A program made the position numbers and the translations under genes. This document shows, in pieces, positions 8,417 through 54,188 of a stretch of DNA of 64,000 bases. The first letter of the stretch is position 1; each line of letters begins with the position of its first letter. This stretch comes from Octopus vulgaris (Eukaryota): NCBI GenBank assembly GCA_951406725.2, contig OX597819.1:86056001-86120000 (forward strand), written 5' to 3'. The notes under the pieces were generated by a model. The model saw only the letters and a program-made list of their open reading frames with translations, was not told the origin of the DNA and did no database searches.

Positions 8417-9780
<1,364 letters not shown>

Positions 9781-9782
9781 AA

Positions 9783-10624
9783 TATATGAAAGAATGGAGT
9801 TGAACGACGAATTAACAAAATTCCTTTATTTTCGACATATGTTTCGAAGGCTGCATATTCTTAATTGCGAAGGAATAAGGAGTATATTATGCCGCTTTCT
9901 CATGAGGAAAAGCAAGGAACTTATGTCAACATCAAGATGCACAAAAATCTTTTAGATGACTGCTCACACGGAGCCCATAGTGATAATGAGTGTCTCTTTA
10001 AAAAAATTTCTTTATAAGGAGTGACGTCAAAATGGTTGGATGTAGAAGATTCTAGAATGTTCTAAAGGTTCAAGGGTTCAAACGAAGTAGGAGAAGAGAG
10101 GCATAAGAATGGGAAGGTGAAAGGGTGCAGTTCAAATGAACGGTGAATTTTCTTTTGTGAATGAGTGTCTGTGTGTGTGACTATATATAACGGCATTAAT
10201 GTGTGTGTGTGTGTATATGTGTGTGCGTGATTGTGTTTGTGGATGGGTGGGTGTCAGAAAAGAGACAGTGGTGAGGTGAACGGTTTGTGTCTGTGTGTAT
10301 GATTGTGCTTACTATAGATAGAGGGAAAGAGAGAGAAAAAGAGATAGAAAGAGGAGGTCGAGGTATAGGGACAAAAGTAACACATACCTCACTGGCTTGG
10401 GTAGTAGTTCTTTGAAAGTAAAAAGAATGAACCCTTGAGCATTCATCTAAAAGTTCTTTGTGCATCTTGATGTTGACATAAGTTCCTTGTTTTCCTGATG
10501 AGAAAGCGGCATAATATACTCCTTATTCCTTCGCAATTAGGAATATGCAGCCTTCGAAACATATGTCGAAAATAAAGTAATTTTGTTAATTCGTCGTTCA
10601 ACTCCATTCTTTCATATATTTATA
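9783..10624. mobile_element. Penelope-derived element with inverted arms of about 185 bp
   Basis: 9783-9966 is the reverse complement of 10436-10624 with a few mismatches. Both arms carry the hammerhead; the left-arm core is mutated to CTCATGA. Confidence 0.75.
10490..10572 (+). ncRNA. Type I hammerhead motif with intact core (Penelope pLTR-like)
   Basis: TTTTC-CTGATGA-GAAAGCGGCATA...TATGCAGCCTTC-GAAA-CATATG-TC-GAAAA. Palindromic stem III ACATATGT and GUC triplet. Confidence 0.8.
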
Positions 10625-10756
10625 TTTAAAAAAACATTCAAATTTCCACACGAAAGCTCGTAACTTCAAACGTGTCTTTTCTGATGTGAATTTGCTACCC
10701 AGATATCGGTTAACCGAATTATCCTTAACAAGATAATTCATTCAACTACTCAAATA

Positions 10757-22613: not shown

Positions 22614-22649
<36 letters not shown>

Positions 22650-22870
22650 TCAATATAGGGTGGCAAAAAAAATTTTGTAGAATTCTTTTGCCACCAGCGG
22701 CCTAGTAGGAAAAAATTAAATAGTCATAGACCATTTTCAAGTTCAACATCAACAATCAAGGAACGGCCATAATAGGCCATTCACCCACTAGAAATAACAG
22801 CCAAAGCTTCAACCGCAAATAAAAGTTAATTCTGTAAACCAGGAGAAAATTTAAAAACATTTACCCTGTA

Positions 22871-22977
22871 ATTTCTTATACGATATACCGTTTCATCTGC
22901 TGATTAATGGTAAACTAACCTGATTAAATTAAATCAAGCCAATCTTCCACAGGCCCTCAGATTCTTCAGTAAGAAAT
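22871..22977 (-). ncRNA. Type I hammerhead ribozyme motif (inverted array unit)
   Basis: Reverse complement of the motif at 23257-23363. Confidence 0.85.
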
Positions 22978-23256
22978 AGCCCAAGACGGAACAGATATTT
23001 TCACGAGGCATTCCCGACCTTGCCAAGTTTATATCTGACCTAAAATTTTCAAATCGTCGCACTCGCGCCAAATTTATCGGCAGCAAATAAATATAAGCCG
23101 TCGATTCCATTACGGAATTAGCCAGAAAATTCATAATTAATCAATATAGGGTGGCAAAAATAGGGTCGCGAGTGCGACGATTTGAAAATTTTAGGTCAGA
23201 TATAAACTTGGCAAGGTCGGGAATGCCTCGTGAAAATATCTGTTCCGTCTTGGGCT

Positions 23257-23363
23257 ATTTCTTACTGAAGAATCTGAGGGCCTGTGGAAGATTGGCTTGA
23301 TTTAATTTAATCAGGTTAGTTTACCATTAATCAGCAGATGAAACGGTATATCGTATAAGAAAT
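23257..23363 (+). ncRNA. Type I hammerhead ribozyme motif (array unit 1)
   Basis: Stem I ATTTCTTA/TAAGAAAT; core CTGAAGA; stem II ATCTG/CAGAT with a 58-nt structured insert; GAAA; near-palindromic stem III ACGGTATATCGT; GUA cleavage triplet at 23353-23355. Confidence 0.85.
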
Positions 23364-23749
23364 TACAGGGTAAATGTTTTTTAAATTTTCTCCTGGTTTA
23401 CAGAATTAACTTTTATTTGCGGTTGAAGCTTTGGCTGTTATTTCTAGTGGGTGAATGGCCTATTATGGCCGTTCCTTGATTGTTGATGTTGAACTTAAAA
23501 ATGGTCTATGACTATTTAATTTTTTCCTACTAGGCCGCTGGTGGCAAAAGAATTCTACAAAATTTTTTTTTGCCACCCTATATTGATTAATTATGAATTT
23601 TCTGGTTAATTCCGTAATGGAATCGACGGCTTATATTTATTTGCTGCCGATAAATTTGGCGCGAGTGCGACGATTTGAAAATTTTAGGTCAGATATAAAC
23701 TTGGCAAGGTCGGGAATGCCTCGTGAAAATATCTGTTCCGTCTTGGGCT

Positions 23750-23856
23750 ATTTCTTACTGAAGAATCTGAGGGCCTGTGGAAGATTGGCTTGATTTAATT
23801 TAATCAGGTTAGTTTACCATTAATCAGCAGATGAAACGGTATATCGTATAAGAAAT
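23750..23856 (+). ncRNA. Type I hammerhead ribozyme motif (array unit 2)
   Basis: Same sequence as 23257-23363. GUA at 23846-23848. Confidence 0.85.
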
Positions 23857-24241
23857 TACAGGGTAAATGTTTTTTAAATTTTCTCCTGGTTTACAGAATT
23901 AACTTTTATTTGCGGTTGAAGCTTTGGCTGTTATTTCTAGTGGGTGAATGGCCTATTATGGCCGTTCCTTGATTGTTGATGTTGAACTTAAAAATGGTCT
24001 ATGACTATTTAATTTTTTCCTACTAGGCCGCTGGTGGCAAAAGAATTCTACAAAATTTTTTTTGCCACCCTATATTGATTAATTATGAATTTTCTGGTTA
24101 ATTCCGTAATGGAATCGACGGCTTATATTTATTTGCTGCCGATAAATTTGGCGCGAGTGCGACGATTTGAAAATTTTAGGTCAGATATAAACTTGGCAAG
24201 GTCGGGAATGCCTCGTGAAAATATCTGTTCCGTCTTGGGCT

Positions 24242-24348
24242 ATTTCTTACTGAAGAATCTGAGGGCCTGTGGAAGATTGGCTTGATTTAATTTAATCAGG
24301 TTAGTTTACCATTAATCAGCAGATGAAACGGTATATCGTATAAGAAAT
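24242..24348 (+). ncRNA. Type I hammerhead ribozyme motif (array unit 3)
   Basis: Same sequence as 23257-23363. GUA at 24338-24340. Confidence 0.85.
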
Positions 24349-24471
24349 TACAGGGTAAATGTTTTTTAAATTTTCTCCTGGTTTACAGAATTAACTTTTA
24401 TTTGCGGTTGAAGCTTTGGCTGTTATTTCTAGTGGGTGAATGGCCTATTATGGCCGTTCCTTGATTGTTGA

Positions 24472-24504
<33 letters not shown>

Positions 24505-26285: not shown

Positions 26286-27496
26286 GCTCAATATACATAT
26301 ATATATATGTGTGTTTATGTGAGCATTTGTATATGCTTTAATTATAATACATAATATATACATATTTTCCCTCCACCACACATATACACATGTGTATACT
26401 GTACCATTCAAATATGTGTAAACATTATTTAATATAAATTCTTTGTTCTTCCAGCATTTTGAAACGTAGTTTTTTTTTATGTTATAATTAAATAAATTGC
26501 CTCTTCATACCAAGCTAAAGAAATTGTGCAATTTATCTTTAAAAGTGAGTAGAAACTTTGAAACTATCAGAATGTTACCAAATGTCTAGAGGTAAATTTA
26601 TTCATATATGAATTATTAAAATATAACCTGGCATTATTGCTGATTACGATTGTTTTCTGATGACGACATACTCGTCGTGATTTTCATTATTTAATTTTTA
26701 GTATTTCTCTAAATTACTAAAATTACAGTCATTAATCATTATAATTAATCAATGTCATTTTTACTGTTATTTTTATTTCATTTAGACATTACCAGTAAAA
26801 AATATTTAAACTCTGTTAATAAGGTTGATTACTTTCTAATTCGCCATAAAACATTTTAAACTAAAGGCCGTTATTCTGGATATGACGTTCAGATATTTCC
26901 AAAACGACCTGTATGTTTTCATATGGAGATGAAAACCGTGTATCGTACCCGACTCACCAGCAGCATTTTTGTGTCATGATGTGCGACTAACCACAATTTT
27001 AGTTTTGTCTTAGTAGCTTACTTGGACGCAGGTTGTTGCGAGTCGGCCTGCTACCTAAGGCGTTATTCACAGCCCTGGGTCACTGATATTTCTGATGGCA
27101 GGTTACCACCGGAATACCATTTTCACCTTTAACATCTAATACTGGTAGTATGAAAAGGATGGTGCACTGCAAGAATCATTGTATCTATATAGAAGCCTGG
27201 CCCAATTGCGGGTAGTGGTGTAAATCCTTTGAAACTTACCAAGTAATTTTGGTGCTAATGGTGGTGGAGTTACACCAGCTGATGGATTAAGTCACACGTG
27301 CTTAGTGGCGCCGCCTATATTCATAACAATACAACGAGGTCATTCGACCTTCTAAGTTTCAATACTAAGAGTACATTAATCAATGTAGCTTCTACTGTAC
27401 AATAAACGGATTGGTCAAGTCTAAAATGTATATGTTCTCAAAATCTACTCACTCAAAGCTGATTTGGGACAACGACGAAAACACAATAGGAAATAT

Positions 27497-27882
27497 CTTT
27501 TCTACTCTAGGCACAAGGCTCAAAATTTTGAGGGTGGGGACCAGTCGATTAGATCTCTCTCCGTACGCAACTGGTACTTAATTTACCGACTCCAAAAAGA
27601 TGAAAAGCAAAGTCGACCTCGGCGGAATTTGAACTCAGACCGACGGAATACCTATTTCTTTATTACCCACAGGGGCTAAACATAGAGGGAACAAACAAGG
27701 ACAGACATAGGTATTAAGTCGATTACATCAACCCCAGTGCGTAAATGGTACTTAATTTATCGACCCCGAAAAGATGAAATGCAAAGTCGACCTCGGCGGA
27801 ATTTGAACTCACAACGTAACGGCAGACGAAATACGGCTACGAATTTCGCCCGGCGCGCTAACGTTTCTGCCAGCTCGCCGCC
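27497..27882 (-). mobile_element. tRNA-derived SINE, family 2 (central GCCTTTCATCCTTTCGGGGTCGAT-type domain), two partial tandem copies
   Basis: Head GGCGGCGAGCTGGCAGAAACGTTAGC and B-box GAGTTCAAATTCC. Related degenerate copies near 6580-6790, 28650-28755, 31000-31180, 33890-34090, 47205-47290 and 59785-59968. Confidence 0.8.
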
Positions 27883-28222
27883 ATCACAGCAGGAAAAATG
27901 CCATTATTGTTACTTATTAGATGTCTTTTATTTCTATAGAAATTTTCATTCAATTTTCAGTAACCGTTAAGAATAATAGAGGACAAAGATACATGTAGGG
28001 GAAAATACGAATTATTTCTAAAATTTTGTTGTTCTTCATAATTTTGAAATTTGACGCATAGTAAACATTTTGATTTTAAGTAGAATATAATAAATATATG
28101 AAATCAACTGTAAAAAAATATATACTTTATTTTGAATTTAGCATTTTCGATAAAATGTGTTGCATATTGAAATTTCTAAAAAGTATTTCATTCCTTATAT
28201 TTATTTTCTTCATTTTGACTTT

Positions 28223-28353
28223 TCAAGTAAATAAATTGTTAAGGGAGTAGACTGTTATGACATTTAAGATTAAAATTATTCTATAATTTGCTTGAATCAA
28301 GTTTGAAATCGCCAAGACTTCAAAATCGTGCGGATTATATTTAACCTGACTAC
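28223..28353 (-). CDS. CNTN: Contactin-like terminal exon A (distal duplicate), GPI-anchor signal
   Basis: Acceptor tttctttcaaatattttccag. Phase-1 reading GSQVKYNPHDFEVLAISNLIQANYRIILILNVITVYSLNNLFT*. Same 131-nt length as exon B, 30/43 aa identical, no indel or internal stop. AATAAA at 28131-28126. Confidence 0.72.
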
Positions 28354-31300
28354 CTGGAAAATATTTGAAAGAAACGATTTGTAAAATTTTGATTTTGTTA
28401 AATCATTCCACTGATGATTGTTTTCACATTAGCATATATTGATAAGGAATCAAATTATGATCACTATCATTAGATATGTAAACACGAATTAACAACAGAA
28501 CAAATCCATTTTCTTTTTTTTTTTTGCAATTTTCATAGATACATTATTTGGTTTGGTAACAGTGACGAAATGCAAATCAATATAAATTCTCTTAAATTTG
28601 GGGATAAAAATAATTATCTTTATTATTGGATATGTAAACAAGATAAATGCGGTAGAGGAGTCGCTTGCACGCTGGGAAAGGTGCTCAGCGGCATTTCGTT
28701 TGTCTTTACGTTCTGAGTTCACAGTCTGTTGATGTCAACTTTTGCCGTTCAACTCCTCTTTGTTATATACTTTTCGCTTCTACCACGAGAAATGTTATGT
28801 ATCGTTTTTATATTTACGTCATAACTGAACACCCTTTAGAAAGAGTTTCAAACGATGACTGTTTATGAGGAAATTTGGGCTTGCTTATGAATAAGGCAAA
28901 TTTCTCAGTTGTTTATCCTTGAAGATTGCTTAATATTATTCTAAATCTACTCTCTGTAAAACAAAAGGATAATTGCAATCGTCTCTGCAGACTATGATGC
29001 CTGAAATTAAAATCCTGGATTAAACTGCGAATTATTATTAACTGCATTGACTTCACGTATCGTGTAGATTGGAATTCGAAGATATAATACTGATATAATA
29101 TTACTCAGCTACGCTGGTAAAGGTTTAATAAATTTTAATACGCTCTACTATATACTTATTTTATATCAGAAAGATTATGTGACTAAGCTTTGACCCACAG
29201 CTGCAGCAGCGCCACTGCTGTTGGTGAACGAAGTACATTTGCGGCTCTACTGAGCTGTTGGTCATATAACGTTTTAATTACATATGAATCACACTTAATC
29301 GTTTATAATCCTATTATAAATGTTATGTTTATTACAGATTGTGTCTCCGTTATTGCTTCATAATTTAACGAAAACTATTACTCTGGTGTGTATAATAATG
29401 TCCTCGATGTCATTCCATAATTAATATATTGCTTTTTAAAGCATTACTGTAGCGAAATATTACAGATAACAATCAGCTATAACCTTCTTCGAGAAGTTTA
29501 TAACTTGGAACTATATTTACTCTGTGGTTAGTGAATGTTAGAGTAAAAGAAGTAAATTAGTGACGGATACGGACCGCTAACCTCTTTCGCTTTTTGAGTA
29601 ATTCAATTATTATACGCAAGTTCATTTAGCCGACTAATGTCTAACAAAGAAACAAGATTAGCAAATTCAGTCGTGAAGTAAGGGGAATTATAGAGAACAA
29701 GTTGGATTGCCAAAGTTATCCTTGATTGAGCTGAACTATGATAACTCTCCCTCATATTTAGGAATGTCTAGGAATATATAATGTAATTTGTCCCTCATAT
29801 CTTAAGACGGCGGATATAGTATGAGAGAGATTTAGCTGCTGTTTTTTGTAAGTCGGTTAAATGGTGAAACAAAAGCTTCTTCTGTGTTTTGTAAGGAATC
29901 TTAAATATTGAAATACAGTTTCAGCATTAGATTGGAATAATTTCATTTCACTTATGACTCTAATGCTTTTCTTTCATTGGTCGAACGAAACCATACTGCA
30001 GTGAATTCATCCAAACGTAAAGATACTCCTCTTTAGCCCCTGCTGAAGCGTGGTGCTAATACATTTCAATTTTGCAGTTGGAGTATCCGAGCCAATTCAT
30101 AGAGATGTTGTTGGGCAGTATGATGCCAAACATTTTTGGTATCTAATAATTGGAGGTAACAAACAAGACGATTATTCTCATAATGTTGTCTCTTGTCTTC
30201 GAATTCAACAACTGAAAAAATTTCAACTTTTTTTCTGGCAAAATAGCAAAAAGTAAAATATTTGTATAGCTATTATTTTTGTGAAGTCTTTGGAGATTAT
30301 ATTATTTAAAATGTCTACATATTTTCAGATAAATAATGTTGAGTCGCCAACGTAGAAATCGCTTTTATTATATCTAAAGCTTTCGAACAATCTAGTAGAC
30401 ATTAAGGTCGGGGTAAGGGAAGTGATGTCTTTACATGTGTGCAACGTCATTTCGGAACGGTTTTCTATAGATACAAAATGGAATGCATTAGAAACAAAAG
30501 TGAAATTATTCCAAACCAAAACACAGTTGATATCCGTGTCAAAGTGGAAGCCGAAATCAGGTCATTTGATTAACCTACCAGAAAGTTCAATAAAATATTC
30601 CTCAAATCACTCTATAAATGTGACGACGAAAACCCAAACTGGTTTATAATATTAAGTTTTGTTTCTAACACAGTCACAAAGCTAGAAATTTAGGGAGCGC
30701 ATTAGTCGATTAAATTGATTATAGTTCTTGATATTCGGCGACCAATGAAGGAGGAAAGGTAAATTTGTTAATGGGAAGTTTCATGTTGTTCTTAAATTCT
30801 TGATATGTGGTAAGAATGATAACATAGGGAAGACGATGTATTTGATCGAAATTTCCCTTCAAATGGTTTGTCTGAACTACATACTACTAAGAAATGTACA
30901 TCCAGCTACAAATATTGATTTCGAGAGATGAAAACGTTGGATGTTTGTTCAGATGACCGAAATATATTTCATTTAGATTATTGTTTAAATGATTCTGCCA
31001 GCGCACTGGCAGAATCATTAACCTCTTTTGTGGTTGTTCTTTTCGAATTCAAATTTCGCTGGGTTCAACTTTGCCTTTCATCCTTTCGGAGGTCGATAAG
31101 CTAAGTACTGTTCGAGTACGGGATAGATATAATCGACTTGCCCTTCTCTGAAAATTGCTGACCTTCTGCCAAAAATTAGAAAAAAATTATAATTTACTTT
31201 TTCCATTGAAATCATTTCATCGTGAACAAAGTTTCTTTGCTTTTAAAGTGGTGTATAACGTATGCGGTTTATAATAATAATCTGGATATTTGATCCTCAT

Positions 31301-31439
31301 AAAGAGACTTTAATTAAGTTTCAATTTAACTATAGATAGCTATTTCTATTTTCTTAATCAAAGAAATGCATTGAATTACTATATAAAATTTTATTGCTAT
31401 ATTGATTTTCCTTTGTGCATTACTACACACACACACACA

Positions 31440-31487
<48 letters not shown>

Positions 31488-31490
<3 letters not shown>

Positions 31491-31702
31491 TCTTTTCTCT
31501 CTTTTACTTGTTTCAGTCATTTGACTGTGGCCATGCTGGAGCACCGCATTCAGTCGAGCAAATCGACTCCAGTACTTATTCTTTGGAAGCCTAGTACTTA
31601 TTCTATCGGTCTCTTTTGCCGAACCGTTAAGTTACGGGGACGTAAACACACCAGCATCGGTTGTCAAGAAGTAATGTTGGGGGACAAAGACACACAAACA
31701 TT

Positions 31703-31743
<41 letters not shown>

Positions 31744-31899
31744 GACGGGCTTCTTTCAGTTTCCGTCTACCAAATCCACTCACAAGGCTTTGGTTGGCCC
31801 GAGGCTATAGTAGAAGACAGTTGCCCAAGGTGCCATACAGCGGAATGAACCCGGAACCATGTGGTTGGTAAGCAAGCTACTTACCACACAGCTACACCT

Positions 31900-31903
<4 letters not shown>
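31488..31903 (-). mobile_element. tRNA-derived SINE, family 1
   Basis: Same head and body as 5617-5991, with an internal (TA)n. Confidence 0.88.
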
Positions 31904-31934
<31 letters not shown>

Positions 31935-31937
<3 letters not shown>

Positions 31938-32304
31938 TATCAGTATCGCCCGGCGTTGCTCAGGTTTGTAAGTGAAATAACTATAAAGTATTTTTAGAGA
32001 GTTATAGCCAAAAAATAGCAAAAAAATGGAAAAAAAAAATGATGGTAAATTTTTTTTGAGTTAAAAAAGGTCGAGTTGCGTCCCCTAGACAGGCTGTGGT
32101 TTGTGTTTATGATTCTCGACCCCATGTCGAATTTATCGATTTTTTTCAGAACTGGGGGAACTTTTCAAAATTTTCGCTGCGTTAGTTTTGAATTATGACA
32201 TTGGGCTATGTGTGTGTCAAGTTTCATCAGAATCGGTTGAAAGCTGTGGTCAGGGTGAGGGTACAACCAAACAGACACACAGAAACAGACACAGACAAAC
32301 TGCC

Positions 32305-32310
<6 letters not shown>
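31935..32310 (+). mobile_element. Non-autonomous Helitron/Helentron-like element
   Basis: 5' TACT...GCCCGGCGTTGCTC and 3' AAGTTTCATCAGAATCGG...(ACAG)n...TTTATATA. A similar 3' end lies on the minus strand at about 15610-15725. Confidence 0.55.
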
Positions 32311-32366
<56 letters not shown>

Positions 32367-33472
32367 AATAATGTTGATTAATTGTTGATTAATTGTTGAT
32401 TAATTTTTCGCTAAAAACATTTCAATTCAAATAAAGATTTTTCTCTAGATATGACGTTCGTGCATTTCAAAAAATAAACAATGTTTTCATGTGGAAACGA
32501 AAACCACTTACCACTCAGCATCATTTTGTTGTTTGTTCCATTGGCTCAGCCAGTAGCTTTCAGTTTCCCTCCACAAACTAAGAGACATATTTTTTTTACC
32601 TCACAGGACTTGTTAAATTACGGATTGATACTGTAGGTATTCTGACTCATGATATTGTACTAAGCACAATTTCGGTTTCCTCTAAGTAGCTGACCTCGAC
32701 GTAGGTTGTGGAGAGTGGGCCGGCCAGCAAATAAGGCAGATAACAAAGGCCTTAATCACAGCCCTGGGCCACTGCCATTTCCGTTGGCAGGTCTCCACCG
32801 GAATACCACTTTCCTCTCTATCCTCTAATTATGGTAAACAGCCGGAATCATTGTATCTATATCGAGGCCTGGCCCAATTGCGGGCAGTAGAATGAAACCT
32901 TTGAAACTTCCCGAGTAATGTTGATGGTGGTGCAGTTACACCAATGACGGATTAGATCACATGAGTTTAGTGGCGCCGCATATATTCATAAGAATATAAC
33001 GAATATAACCCAGTTTCAATAAAAAGGATACAAGGGTCAATGTACTTTCTATTATACAAATAAGCGGATTGGTCATAGCTTAAAAGCTGTTTCCTTATAC
33101 GCCTATAAGCTCAAAGCAGATCTTGGGACGACGATAAAAACAACAACAATAATATCATAATTATCATTTATCAGATTTATTTCTAAAGAACTTTTTATTC
33201 AGGTATGAATTAAGACTAAAGAAAATGTTACACTTAGGGGAAAATTCAAATAAATTTTAAAAATTCATTATTATGTTGTTTGTAATTTTGAAAATTGATG
33301 CATAATAGATATTTTGATTATATGTAGAATACAGAAAATATATGAAAATAACTAAAGCTAAAATTTTATTTATATATATATATTTTTTATTTAGCATTTT
33401 CAATCAAACGCGTTGAATGTTGAAGCTTTTAAAATATATTCAAATAAAAGCAAAATTTTGAATTTTGAATTT

Positions 33473-33603
33473 TCATGTAAAAATGTTGTTCGGTGAGTAG
33501 ATAGTTATAATATATAGAATTAAAATTATTCCAAAGTTTGCATGAATCGTGCTTGAAATCGCCAAGACTTCAAAATCTTGCGGATTATATTTCACCAGAC
33601 CAC
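33473..33603 (-). CDS. CNTN: Contactin-like terminal exon B (proximal), GPI-anchor signal
   Basis: Acceptor ctttcctttcaaatattttccag. Phase-1 reading GGLVKYNPQDFEVLAISSTIHANFGIILILYIITIYSPNNIFT*: small-residue omega region, spacer and hydrophobic tail. AATAAA at 33391-33386 and 33370-33365. Confidence 0.82.
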
Positions 33604-34183
33604 CTGGAAAATATTTGAAAGGAAAGATTTGTAAAATTTTGATCTTGTCAAATTATTCAACTGGAGATAATTTTCACATTATCGTACATTGATAAGAAAC
33701 AAAATTATGATCACTATTATTAGAGATGTACACAAGAATTAATAACAGAACAAATCCATTTTTTGGCTATTTCCATGGATACTATATTTGATTTGGTAAC
33801 AAAGATGAAATGCAAACCAATATGAATTTTCTTAAATTTTGGGATAGAAATTATTATCATTATTATTGGATATGTAAACAAGGCAAATGCGGTAGAGGAA
33901 TCACTTGCATGCCAGACAATATGTTTCGCGGCATTTCGTTCTAAGTTCACATTCCGCGGATGTCGATTTTTGCCTTTCAGCCCTTCGGGTTCAATGACAT
34001 TTCAAGCAGTGGAAAACTGGGGGGGGGGGCGTTGTATGCGACTCACCTCTCTCCCAGAATTACTGGCCTCGGGTCAAAATTTGAATCCATTATTAGACAT
34101 GTACACAATAAATCAGAACAGAAGAAGAGCATTTTTGTACTGTATTTGATAATTAACATAGAATTCATAGAAAATATAGATTC

Positions 34184-34688
34184 TTAGTTAGTTAGTTAGT
34201 TAGTTAATTTGGCTCAAAAGCAAATAGCAAGGCCATGTAGGGGGACATGGAGTTAAGTACAGGGTGGTGTTCATGTAAAGAGTTCAGGCCACTTGAGGTC
34301 AAGGGAGGCTTTGAACAAAGCGGTCGTCGGCATCTTCACCATCTCGTCTGGCAGCTTGTTCCACGGATCCGCAACCCGGACGGAGAAAGCTCCTCTCCTT
34401 CGATTGAGATGAAATCGTCGCAGGTAGAGCTTTTCGGAATGACCCCGCAGCCGACGCTCTGGAGCAGGAGTGAAGAACAGCTCTTTCGAGAGGTTACACT
34501 TTCCGCTTATGATGTTGTGGGCGAGAATGAGATCACCACGGCGGCGGCGTTTTTCAAAAGAATAAAGGTCGAGCGTCCTCAGCCTTTCTTCGTAGGACAA
34601 ATTTTTGAGACCATGAACCAGGCGGGTAGCCAGCTTCTGGACTCTTTCGAGATGCTGTATGTCTTTGAGGAGATAAGGAGAAGAGGCT
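34184..34688 (-). mobile_element. 5'-truncated CR1-clade LINE 3' end
   Basis: SPYLLKDIQHLERVQKLATR...SYEERL..LDLYSFEKRRRRGDLI...LRGHS...FSVRV...WNKLP. (TAAC)n tail and a possible TCTTAG TSD. Confidence 0.9.
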
Positions 34689-35685
34689 CTTAGGGTTTTG
34701 GGGACAGAACAGTGTTATGATTGACGTCCAGTTACCCTTCCTTAATCAATAAAGAGTAGCTCTATCCGCGGACGTTCACGGTTATTTTCAAAACTATGAT
34801 TGTTAGAAGTTTCTGGACAACACAAAATTGCATAATTTCTTTTAAAATGGTAGTTTATCTGAAGAAACGTCTCAAGATGGTGTATAGCTCACATAGGTAG
34901 AAGAGAAAAGATAATATTCTTTATTATGTATTTATCACTTCTACCTCGAGAAGTGCTATTTAAAAAAACTTTATATCTACGTCAATAAGGAAATACACTC
35001 TTTAAAAAAAAGAGTTAAGAACGACTCTTTATGAGAAAATAGTGACTCATTTATGAATAAGGCAACGTTCTCAGTTGTTTATCCTTGAAAGTTGCTTAAT
35101 GTTACTCACAATTCTAAATCTACTGGAAATCGATTTCTCTCTAAAACAAAAGGGAAATTGCATTGCTTTCATGTGGAATTAAATTCCTGAATTCTTACTG
35201 TGAATTCTTCCCAACTTATTTCAATTCACGTATCGTGGAGATTAAAAATCGAAGATATAACGTCGGTATAATATCTCCCAGCTACATTCGTAAATATTTA
35301 ATAAATTTAAGTCTGCAATAATGAATACTTATTTATATATCAGTAAAGCACTTCTTACTGGATTTTAACCCATAGTTCTTGTGAATGAAGGAATAGTCTA
35401 ATAATATATGCAATCACACTTAATTTAAGACATTTACTTACTAGTCATTTTTATCTATTTACCTATTTTTTTACGATATATCTATAATGATACCCAGAAA
35501 CTAGGGTCCGTCTGTATTATGTCAGGTTGGAGATAGGAAGGATGGCTTCCCTTTGCAAATAATGATAAGGCACAGAAAGTGTATCGATAGCCAGCTGGAG
35601 TAGATGTCCTCCTGGGGCTACGAGCTACAGTAGCATCCACCCTTAAGGGTTAGCCACACTTAATGTACTTCACAGAGAGTTATGG

Positions 35686-36848: not shown

Positions 36849-38336
36849 ACTTATAATAACTTAGAAAGGTTTTGGCCAGTATTGGCCCAGGATATATATA
36901 TATATATACATTACGATGAAAGCTATTATTCCGTTAGTTACTGTTTGTTGATTTGGACTGTATTTTTGTGCTTTAAGAATTTATTTTAGGTTTAGTAGCA
37001 ATGTCTATCGGTTATGTTCTTTGCTCAGTCTATATGTATACAGCTCTATGTTGATAATTCTGTAGCTTATTGTTATTTTCCATTTTAAGTAATGGCAACA
37101 TCTGTTTTCGACTATATTCAATAATTTATTCTGAATATGTATAGTTCTCAAGTGTGTTTTAAGTTCTATGTTTCTTCGTTTGACTATGTCTTTGATTTCT
37201 CTGTTTTCTCTATTTTATGTTATGATTTCTATGCTTCGTTGCTATCAGTATGAAACGATTTGTACTTGAGATTTGATGTTCTTATATATGTGTTGCAGCA
37301 ATAAGCAGGTGTAGACATAATGGACATAGTGCGTTAATGTTTGGCCCATCCTTCTTATTATTTCTCAGGAATTATTTATGGGCTTAATACAGTTGATACC
37401 AAAACATGGAAAGATACTGTCCAGCTATCGAAACCACAATGATTTTCATTAGGCAGCTGAAGATTGGATGTATACATTTCATCTACTTGTTCACTGTGAA
37501 CCTTTATATTATATACACTTTATTGAAAATCTAGATCTTGTAAGGTTAAACTTATTTATGTAGCTCTGATTTCTTGGTTAATGGTATTTTTGCAGTATAT
37601 ATTATACGATACATTGATATTGTGTGATTGACCTTCATTGGGATTCTAATTCTGGTGAGGGTTTATGCTTGTTTAGGGATCTCTTGATTACAGATGTTTT
37701 GTGGTACAAATATACATTTATCTATGCATTTGTATGAAGATGCATGGTCTATTGCCTAAAGTGTTTTGTTCACGATTACAGGGTCGTGTTTTCGATTTCC
37801 GAACTAAGCGGTTCGTAGTGTTCTTGAGCAACAAACTTCATGTCAAGCTGAACCAGTTCAAATTCATTCAGCTGTAAATGAATGCTGTGATCTCGATCAC
37901 TTATATGTCATGGAAACCGAGTAACAGGTTAAATGTGCTCTAAAACTTGAGACTCTGCTTAGTTGCTTACATATACATGTTTGTAGTACCCAGAGGAATG
38001 TCTGATTTCGCTTTATGTAACAAGAAGTGCAACAATTAAAAGAAATAGTAGAGTGCTAAAGGGAATATTTTGAGATACTTTTTATGTCTCTTCATTTTAG
38101 TGTGACCCTTTCAATTCCACCGCAGTAGATTTTACTTTTCATCTTTCTGGATTAAATAAACAAGTATCAAGCAAATGCTGATCATTTTTGATAAGCAACA
38201 TCCTCACTCATAGATAATTTCCATCTTTGTGGCAACCCTAGGAGTCATTATTTATATAGATAAGGTTACTTCCCCCAAGAAGATTTAGCTTAAAAGGCTA
38301 AACTTAAAAATTAAAAAAAGTTTAATTTATACTTAC

Positions 38337-38511
38337 CAAGTGTGAAGTAAGTTAATTCACTTAATTTTCCATCTCCAGCTCCAGTGAAACCACATACTCG
38401 AAGTTTATATAAAACGTTCTTTTTCAGATTAGGGATAATTCCTGAGCTAACAACACCTACTTGAACGCATTTACTATAATCCATCATGTCGGTGACCTGC
38501 CAGGAGCATAG
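38337..38511 (-). CDS. CNTN: Contactin-like gene, exon encoding the second half of the last FN3 domain
   Basis: Acceptor ttccatttccag, 175 nt: LCSWQVTDMMDYSKCVQVGVVSSGIIPNLKKNVLYKLRVCGFTGAGDGKLSELTYFTL-G|GTAAGT (phase 1). The 'Y.LRV......GDG..S....F.LG' ending is typical of contactins. Confidence 0.9.
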
Positions 38512-47174: not shown

Positions 47175-48595
47175 ACTGGTTCATTATAATTAGTATCTTA
47201 AAGATATTTGAACTCACAACGTAACGGCAGATGAAATACCGGTAAGCATTTCGCCCGGCGTGCTAACGATTCAGCCAGCTCACCGCCTTCAATTTGATAG
47301 AATAACGTCAATGTATTGATAAATTGGCCAGAATTTTTTTTAAAAATCTAACAAATGATAGCGTTTTCAGAAATAAAAATATAAATGTAGATTTATATAC
47401 GTAGTTTGTGACGGAATGATATTGAAGTGGGTGATGATCATAATAATACTAATAACATTATGATAAAATTGGGTTGATAATATTTATGACCGTCATGCAG
47501 GCCGAGGTGCGGTCATTGACGGTTTCGTTTTCGTAAGATTCAAATTTACTTTACCGTGATAACAGGAGGAATTTATCCTCAGACTGTGGGCAACCGATTA
47601 TCTTATTGGGAAGTAAATTTAGTGTTGACACTCAGTGACATACACAACACCACATGTAGATCACTCGACGAAGAAAGATGAAAGATCTCGTACTATACAA
47701 CACTTACCGACAGAATCACGTACGTTTTTGATACATCGGTCAGTCAAGATCTATCTCAACTTCAACATGTTTGCTTATTAGGAATTCTCATCCGTAATTT
47801 TTCTTTGTTTACTCCATGCAATGTATTCTCTCTCATTCGTTTTTGTTTATAATAAACTACATATTCTTTTGAATTCCCTAATTCAGTATTATAATGTCTT
47901 ATCTAGTCATTTTGCAGAAAGTACGAAACAGCACTATTTTGCTATTTTCTGTATGGTTTCACAGTCTTTTTTGCTGCATAATCCTGTTTATTTTGATGAC
48001 CCGTATTTATTTATCCTCGCGTACACATATTATGGAAACATGATGTGCTTTTATTTAAAATGCGTATTTCTTTTATCTCGAAAGTTACATTTCTAAAGAT
48101 TGCTTGTTCTATAGGAAATTTGCAATGTTTACAAGGAAGTACTTTTTGAATAACATTAGACATCTTCATTAGTCGGAAAGCTGAAATGGAAGGGTTACTT
48201 TTCTTTTACCGCGCATTATGTTTTGCATGAAACGTAAAAGTACCACGAATAAAGATAGATTTGAAGTATTATAAGATGTACAAGGAAGAAAGATAATTAT
48301 ACATGTTTATGTTGGTAATATAATCACATTACATGCTTTCTTATTTCAAAGAATTTCAGATTAGCGGACTTTCAAGTACTGTTTTCGATATACAGGCAGA
48401 CGTTGTAGTCTTAACTCGTTTCCCGGTTTAATGTGCTCACCTGATCGTAGGTTGGTTTTAGCATGGTTCATTCTGTTGCATGCATTTGGGTTAAGTCCAC
48501 CGTCTCAAAGCAGTCACACACGTCTGGTAGACTCAAAGTACTGCCTAACATCCGCTAACTAAACACTAAAACGTATTATAAATTAAATCTCTTAC

Positions 48596-48711
48596 CTTGT
48601 ACCCTTGGATTGGATCTTCGTTGTTGTTGTAGCCAACTCCACGGAATGTAACTCGAACACTTTCCGGACCGTGAGAATATACGTGTATTTCGATCGGGTA
48701 TTTCAAAGGAG
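48596..48711 (-). CDS. CNTN: Contactin-like gene, exon encoding the first half of the last FN3 domain
   Basis: Acceptor ctttaacag, 116 nt, phase 1 in and phase 0 out: (P)PLKYPIEIHVYSHGPESVRVTFRGVGYNNNEDPIQGYK|GTAAG. Phases match both neighbouring exons. Resembles the invertebrate contactin pattern 'V.VY...P.SVRV.W......EEP..GYK'. Confidence 0.9.
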
Positions 48712-52300: not shown

Positions 52301-53590
52301 TTGATAAAAACTTAGATATGTTTCGACCAAAGATTGGTCCAGGCCATATCTAACTTAATAGGACCACCTGATAGGATTATCTAAATCCTTTTTAGTCAAG
52401 TTTTGTTTATGGTCCATTCAAGTAGTGAGTTCTTGTTGAGGGAGTTGTATCCAGGTAAATGTGGCTTATCCGGTATTCCTTGAAGAAATCTGTCCAGGAT
52501 CCGTTTAAAGGTGATGAGATCATTTTCCTCTTTAATCAATTTTGGGACAATGTTAAACAGGGCAGGGCCTGTTGGGGAAAAGAAATTATGTCGCAGTGTA
52601 CCTATATGTTGTGAACCTGAATTGGGCAGGGGATGTATGGTCCGTGGTCCCAGCCTTGAATGAACCTTGAATCTAATGTTCAGGTCGTTTGGGCAATGCT
52701 GGCGGTATATTCTCCATATCGTACAAATGATGTACCGCTCGCGGCGGCGCTGGAGAGAGTAGAGTTTCAAAGCTTTAAGGAGGTCCCAGTAATCGAGATC
52801 AGTCATGCCTTCAATTCGTTTAGTGAGTGCCCTGTAAGGTGATTCAATCCATGAGATGTTTTGTTTTGTATGGGGAGTCCACAAGGGGCAGCAGTATTCA
52901 AGGTGTGGCCGTACAAAGGAGGAGAAAAGTGGAATGATGACACCTTGTTCTCGATCGGAATGTTCTAAAGATCCAGGGGCTCATCCTACGAGCTATATCG
53001 ACCTTATTGTTGATGTGGGCACTTCAACTGAGATTTTTATCAACAATTACACCCAGGTCTCGGATATTATTAGATGCCGTAAGCGGTTCCCCAGAAGGAA
53101 GAGAGTATGGCTGTTTTAGTATAGACCTTCTTCCAAAATGCATCAGCTCAAATTTTCCCTCGTTCAGTTGCATTTTGTTTTTGTCTGCCCATTGACTCAC
53201 AGCATATAGATCAGACTGGAGTTGAGTTCGATCTTCTTCATTGATAATTTTCTGGAGCTTAGTGTCATCAGTAAATATTTTCACTTTGCAGTGATTTATG
53301 ACGCTGGAAAGGTCATTTATGTAAATTATAAAGAGGAGCGGGCCCAAGACAGTCCCCTGAGGGACACCACTGGTGATTTTTGCTGGGCTTGAGTGGACTC
53401 CATCTACCACAACATGTTGCCCTCTATTCGCCAGGAAATACTTAATCCAGTGTAGAGGTTTTCCACGGATTCCAACATCTGCCAATTTTGAGAGTAAGAT
53501 ATTATGGTCAACCCTGTCGAACGCTTTACTGAAGTCAAGATATATGACATCAGAGTTCGAACCTGTTCCCAAGACTTTAAGTATATCTTC
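52297..53590 (-). mobile_element. 5'-truncated CR1/L2-group LINE, RT and C-terminus
   Basis: DVIYLDFSKAFDRVDH, SGVPQGTVLGPLLF, FTDDTK, IRDLGV and LKLYSLQRRRERY, with frameshifts. Confidence 0.92.
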
Positions 53591-53629
53591 AATATGTTTA
53601 TATTTTTGCATTATACATGCATATATATG

Positions 53630-54188
53630 TATAAGTCTAAACTAATGTTTAAGGATTGCCTTAAAAATGCTCTAATACAGACAAGAATTGCAGCTGGTAA
53701 TTGGGAGAGGGGGACAAAAATCCGTGATGGATGGAGGAAGATAGTTTGAGTGGGAGAGAGTGAAGTATGAGAGAATTATGAGGGGGCTTAGAAGGGGGAA
53801 CATGTGGAAAGTGAGTGTTGCTTTTATGTGCGTAGTTTGTGGGCGGAGGTATTTGAGTCGTACAGACCTGTTGAGCCATCAAAATTCTCATAGAAATCGA
53901 CCCATGATAAACAATGATGTGGCTATTAAAATTCATAACAGAACGTGTGTAAAATGTGAAAGGTTGTGCCTCTCAGCTGGAGGTCTAAAAACACATGTTA
54001 AGAGAGTGCATATGGCGACGCCTGTTTCTCCTGCCAGCCAGCACAGTTGTCTACTATGTAATAAAATGTGTAAAAGCTTGGCCGGGCTTATAAGTCATAT
54101 AAGAGCATCACATGGCAACAATCGTGAATCATTTCAGTAAGTCTTCTTGGCAATGGCTTTTCTCGTGTAACGAGGATGCAGTTGTGTG

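Follow-up and report, generated by a model that had tools for sequence, protein, structure and literature searches.

Two genomic copies of the terminal, predicted GPI-signal exon in a contactin gene of Octopus vulgaris

Does a gene that carries two intact copies of its last exon make use of both? This question is raised by a contactin gene of Octopus vulgaris on the minus strand of a 64,000-nucleotide (nt) stretch of contig OX597819.1 (positions 86,056,001 to 86,120,000; the window), in which the last FN3-domain exon is followed by two homologous terminal exons, each encoding a predicted glycosylphosphatidylinositol (GPI) signal. An earlier note on this DNA had proposed that the two serve as mutually exclusive last exons. 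The splice junction observed in RNA-derived contigs leads from the FN3 exon to the proximal exon (copy A), and the distal exon (copy B) is probably a silent spare that a tandem duplication of about 2.5 kb left behind.

The last FN3-domain exon (38337-38511), located by tblastn and by a protein match, is bounded by a phase-1 GT donor at 38336. Copy A (33473-33603), which comprises a linker, the predicted GPI signal and the stop codon, follows after an intron of 4.7 kb; copy B (28223-28353) lies 5.1 kb beyond A and 10.0 kb from the FN3 donor. Both exons measure 131 nt, possess the same 17-nt acceptor ending in AG, are in frame after the donor at 38336 and end in TGA. They differ by 25 nucleotides and 13 amino acids (30/43 residues identical), with no indel and no internal stop, and the earlier description of two open paralogous exons is confirmed from the sequence in this respect. 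The pair is enclosed by a tandem duplication with copies of 2.2-2.7 kb, delimited by self-BLAST blocks of 70-75% identity and by alignment. The copy-A segment (32647-35346, with a weak extension of the similarity to about 32395) is split by a copy-specific insertion at about 33980-34917, and the copy-B segment (26974-29172) has a repeat inserted at about 27484-27885 that copy A lacks. When the A region was searched against the genome, two places were returned, A and B, and the downstream flank of the exon likewise has just two genomic matches. Each stop codon is followed by two AATAAA hexamers, 82 and 103 nt past the stop of A (33365-33391) and 18 and 92 nt past the stop of B (28126-28205), which are candidate poly(A) signals by sequence only; near the B stop, as elsewhere in AT-rich DNA, the hexamer is common by chance.

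The surroundings were mapped by tblastn with two full-length contactins over 264 kb, made up of the window, 60 kb on its downstream side and 140 kb on its upstream side. The remaining contactin exons were found in order upstream of the copies, the preceding FN3 exon lying at 48593-48709 (approximate tblastn limits). No FN3 or Ig exon was detected in this range between A and B or past B, in agreement with the earlier note, which had seen no FN3 exon between the copies.

The gene is a contactin of the protostome type. Its FN3 exon is identical in 57/57 residues to the O. bimaculoides contactin-like protein XP_014777082.1, and the names of the 28 homologue matches, where they are not 'hypothetical', read contactin or contactin-like, bar one weak FN3 protein (E=1e-4). 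The protein model from this genome, P0002, has a 90%-identity cluster mate, P0031, the tail of which is identical to copy A. Pfam recognised six Ig_3 stretches in P0031 and five in P0002 as well as fn3 (two stretches pass alone). Lectin_C was found above the cut-off in P0031 (E=1.3e-05) and was not detected in P0002, a model 173 residues shorter. No Pfam family matches tail A or tail B. The contactin identity given in the earlier note is borne out by the exon match, the homologue names and the domains.

Splicing of the FN3 exon to copy A

The FN3 exon is contained in 14 probable RNA runs, none of them recorded as RNA; the RNA status rests on the spliced contigs themselves. Five of these runs were examined together with X20, a run of a related species, and two of five large DNA-type runs were examined as well. 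In 6/6 RNA-type runs a spliced contig enters copy A. In the four runs compared over positions 27800-33750 (four studies), every contig lies on A with 0-1 other letters, departs exactly at the A acceptor and continues for 333-1457 further letters upstream of A. In both further RNA-type runs, which were compared with copy B alone at 80% likeness, the loose end of the contig is the end of the FN3 exon. The identity of the exon is evident from its letters: run X11 agrees with A at 6/6 listed places, showing 8 other letters against 8 diagnostic places, and X20 agrees with A at 11/11 fixed places. An A-type tail is also found at the end of P0002, P0031 and the O. bimaculoides model P0029.

No contig in the six RNA-type runs joins letters of B to the FN3 exon, and the proposed mutually exclusive use of A and B is unsupported by these data. 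Depth is 0 over the bin of exon B (28198-28396) in 4/4 runs, and the two further RNA-type runs gave no B-type RNA contig, which is a lack of cover and no proof of absence. Small depth occurs in the neighbouring bins 27999-28197 and 28397-28595, the latter of which overlaps 28444-28500, the site of unrelated short contigs. The chance that all six runs miss B amounts to P<=0.004 if B held a 30% share of the transcripts, 0.01-0.13 at 20% and 0.27-0.69 at 10%, by a rough Poisson estimate that is based on A-contig depths of 3-14 and ignores pruning by the assembler. A search for tail B within longer proteins yielded three candidates, none with E<=10; the same search also failed to score known A-tailed proteins and was therefore powerless.

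Divergence of the copies and the fate of copy B

The age of the duplication can be judged from related species. DNA run X19 (organism E), whose copy A agrees with the O. bimaculoides protein at codons 3, 9, 23 and 25, contains both A-type and B-type contigs, so the duplication predates the species split; the part of PMC7656900 drawn on here gives no date for that split. Run X18 (organism D) contains an A-type contig only, at a low depth of 7.5, which is no evidence of B loss there, and B was found intact in one of the two related-species DNA runs.

Divergence between A and B reaches 0.191 in the exon, compared with 0.209 for the flanks as a whole (p=0.74) and 0.160 for the intron beside it (p=0.42), which places the exon, at 19%, inside the flank range of 16-25%. 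The 131 intronic nt just upstream of the exon show 14.5% mismatches and no indels, versus 19.1% in the exon. The earlier note had set the intact exons against many indels in the flanks. This is true of the flanks overall (31 events in 1568 aligned nt) and does not hold beside the exon, where the upstream intron shows 2 events in 376 nt. The intactness of exon B is not clearly beyond chance. In a neutral simulation, the acceptor, frame, stop and length of B were all kept in both species with a P of 0.045-0.22, or 0.05-0.27 under a two-part history; these values depend on the indel rate and the branch lengths, which are our own estimates from the flanks, and stand beside a bias, the locus having been selected for its intactness.

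Differences between the copies are distributed unevenly. The last 120 intronic nt together with codons 1-17 (170 nt) contain 5 that are fixed in both species, versus 10 for codons 18-37 (60 nt; Fisher p=0.0008); within the former stretch, codons 1-17 hold 1 in 50 nt and the plain intron 4 in 120. Mismatches in this genome follow the same course, with 56/377 upstream versus 101/399 downstream of the tract end (p=0.0003). The boundary was set after inspection of the data, which makes both p-values optimistic. Because the low-divergence zone extends over plain intron, gene conversion is the simplest inference. The probable tract covers the upstream intron, the acceptor and codons 1-17 (approximately 28304-28700, with its partner at about 33554-33930), and would end near codon 17-18, the conversion having taken place shortly before the species split. 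The identical 17-nt acceptors need no selection, since gene conversion would explain them; they were considered as a sign of selection and rejected on the ground that the similarity runs on through plain intron. A comparison of the FN3 exon plus tail A with 50%-identity representatives gave 69 matches, among which P0002 alone exceeded 60% identity, and no octopod outgroup that could give the conversion a direction or polarise the A/B stem changes.

Copy B has also changed at conserved residues. At tail position 2, B of this genome has Ser, and Gly occupies this position in 25/25 homologous tails. A second replacement, Gly25Arg, precedes the hydrophobic stretch. The two changes date from after the species split, and copy B of the relative has its own Phe11Leu. 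The Gly2Ser change also makes an extra AG 4 nt into the exon (28350-28353), a possible out-of-frame rival acceptor.

The products of the two exons were compared with the rule for GPI signals in 10.1101/838680, where, in the part used here, omega+2 is in most cases G, A or S, with a hydrophobic stretch beginning at about omega+10. Tails A and B are predicted GPI signals by this rule, as the earlier note had suggested: each has A-I-S at positions 15-17 and a hydrophobic stretch starting at residue 26. The short last exon past an 'FTLG' junction is common to 25 molluscan homologues, of which 18 show an A-x-[GAS] triplet at tail positions 13-20, 16 of them at position 15. The best candidate for omega, omega+1 and omega+2 is likely A15-I16-S17, identical in both copies. 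The 'different omega regions' attributed to the two tails (AISS and AISN) are thus probably a misreading, as the difference would fall only at omega+3, within the part to be cleaved off. With omega at Ala15, three linker residues (2, 3 and 9) would be the only differences between the mature proteins. Mean hydropathy of the last 20 residues is 1.23 in B versus 1.54 in A, the value for B being within the homologue range.

Taken together, silence of copy B is the explanation that we consider probable. The mRNA joins copy A, with its predicted GPI signal, to the last FN3 exon; A has the same acceptor as B, comes first and has an AATAAA of its own, and splicing and cleavage would presumably take place there before B can compete. 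B would meanwhile drift, with at most a trace of leaky splicing to it. Its frame probably persisted by chance, to which the shortness of the exon would have contributed, as would a gene conversion shortly before the species split that refreshed its acceptor and first 17 codons.

Several observations weigh against a silent B and speak for genuine use of B as an alternative last exon, though at a minor level or restricted to certain tissues. Chief among them is that B is intact in two species. The B-type contig of X19 covers the whole exon gap-free, with 16 other letters in 304 nt, and the 15 letters listed create no stop (one unlisted letter could not be placed); B has thus not undergone, in this relative, the decay that the earlier note had named among the findings that would tell against its proposal. 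B has also retained its acceptor, omega triplet, hydrophobic tail and AATAAA hexamers, and its best 13-residue hydropathy of 2.42 is matched by a span of 1.78-3.14 in the homologues. The ratio of non-synonymous to synonymous substitution rates (dN/dS) is 0.31 between A and B (Nei-Gojobori; Fisher p=0.014); for B compared across the two species, with 3 synonymous and 3 non-synonymous changes, it is 0.26 (P=0.20). The missing purifying signal in B has little power, because the expressed copy A lacks such a signal too, with 4 non-synonymous changes and 1 synonymous change between species in codons 1-37. The lowest simulation values (about 0.05) are borderline, and the contigs, which are shallow, lack a tissue record and lose rare forms in assembly, are compatible with a minor or tissue-restricted B form. 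C-terminal swaps are, moreover, an enriched class among human tandem-duplicated exon events (77/236, in the part of PMC9741552 drawn on here).

If B were used in this way, skipping of A would yield nearly the same mature chain with a different cleaved propeptide and 3' untranslated region, by which B would tune anchoring efficiency, mRNA stability or localisation. Against this stand the 6/6 spliced contigs that carry A, an exon conserved no better than its flanks, the absence from B of the glycine present in 25/25 homologous tails and a neutral survival of B that is not rare. The dN/dS of 0.31 was rejected as proof of selection on B: under a transition-biased model the synonymous share speaks against full neutrality with P=0.05-0.11, and the observed share of 10-11/25 fits constraint on A alone (P=0.29-0.67). 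Selection on B, which the earlier note had suspected, is not demonstrable, given an exon divergence equal to that of the flanks and a dN/dS explicable by A. We therefore consider a minor or tissue-restricted use of B unlikely. Doubtful for its part is the more specific proposal that B is a tissue-restricted last exon which swaps only the cleaved GPI propeptide and the 3' untranslated region, conversion keeping its acceptor and linker in step with those of A; if true, one mature adhesion protein would be served by two anchoring efficiencies and two mRNA-control programmes.

It is also conceivable that B went through a period of use and constraint following the duplication and that its decay is now under way in both lineages. 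Codons 1-17 would then owe their single fixed A/B difference in 50 nt to past constraint, and Gly2Ser and Phe11Leu, at otherwise conserved residues, do fall on tip branches. Fixed divergence is equally low in plain intron (4/120), however, which conversion explains and coding selection does not, and such a history appears improbable. That B belongs to a separate interleaved contactin paralogue, a possibility which the earlier note had pointed out, or is an assembly artefact can be rejected as very improbable: the genome does hold several contactin paralogues (4 FN3 matches), but the 3 others lie on other contigs, each with a single tail exon of its own (60-70 kb examined per locus), no other contactin exon was detected in the 264 kb, and A and B are 19% apart and form separate contigs in the X19 DNA of another species, so that the exon map and these contigs largely refute both versions.

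Other contactin models and features of the window

One of the paralogous contactins, on contig C17, has a second annotated isoform, P0043, with a non-homologous and non-hydrophobic last exon (12224869-12224925) located 2.3 kb past the GPI tail exon (C17:12227305-12227189) of the GPI form P0041. P0043 might represent a secreted contactin form beside P0041, to judge from the sequence of its end. In the older O. bimaculoides model P0001, the unusual C-terminus is a translation of non-coding DNA between A and B (window positions 32985-32766 and 30143-30069); the newer model P0029 has a normal tail.

Elsewhere in the window, 22642-24472 is occupied by repeats of 99.4-100% identity that recur about every 490 bp, an inverted match among them, and that are a very recent duplication or an assembly artefact. 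Two open frames on the minus strand, of 147 codons (34274-34714, inside the copy-A-specific insertion) and 205 codons (53027-53641), resemble what we take to be fragments of the reverse transcriptase of long interspersed nuclear elements. An inverted repeat of 194 bp with 96% identity joins 9773-9966 and 10436-10628.

Comparison with known systems

Drosophila Contactin has a C-type lectin domain, six Ig domains and FN3 domains, the architecture also seen in P0031, and is linked to the membrane through GPI (PMC8006247, in the part drawn on here). Molluscan contactin-like proteins end, as here, in a short last exon past the 'FTLG' junction. Compared with protostome contactins, the Octopus gene is set apart by its second genomic copy of this tail exon. 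In open-access literature listings, nothing was found that concerns this locus or a duplication of GPI exons in contactins.

A closer parallel is offered by tandem duplicated exon substitutions, of which 77 of 236 human events are of the C-terminal type (PMC9741552; PMC8373072 is a related source, each drawn on in part). The octopus locus resembles them in having, behind one donor, tandem homologous 3' coding exons of equal phase that each carry a stop and candidate poly(A) signals. The human events catalogued there are annotated as spliced to both exons and are for the most part ancient, more than 90% of them being shared with teleosts, again according to the part of PMC9741552 used. Here, in contrast, a single junction is seen, the DNA of the copies agrees to about 80% and their flanks can still be aligned, and selection on the second copy is not demonstrable. 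Duplicated alternative last exons are a known mechanism, and the octopus pair, not established as a working one, is structurally of that class.

If B is silent, the locus is an ordinary partial duplication and a caution: even in the absence of selection, an exon copy of 131 nt can outlast a species split with its frame open, above all where conversion has occurred, so that intactness of the frame by itself says little about use. Were B used, the two exons would form a natural pair of GPI propeptides and 3' untranslated regions on a nearly identical mature protein, with which the influence of the cleaved signal on anchoring efficiency could be tested in an adhesion molecule of a cephalopod.

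In NCAM and acetylcholinesterase, alternative last exons give rise to GPI-anchored versus transmembrane or secreted isoforms. The octopus gene is comparable in that the choice of the last exon would decide the membrane-anchoring tail. It differs in that the exons of NCAM and acetylcholinesterase are non-homologous and change the mode of anchoring, whereas in the octopus gene the kind of signal encoded and the predicted omega triplet are alike in both exons.

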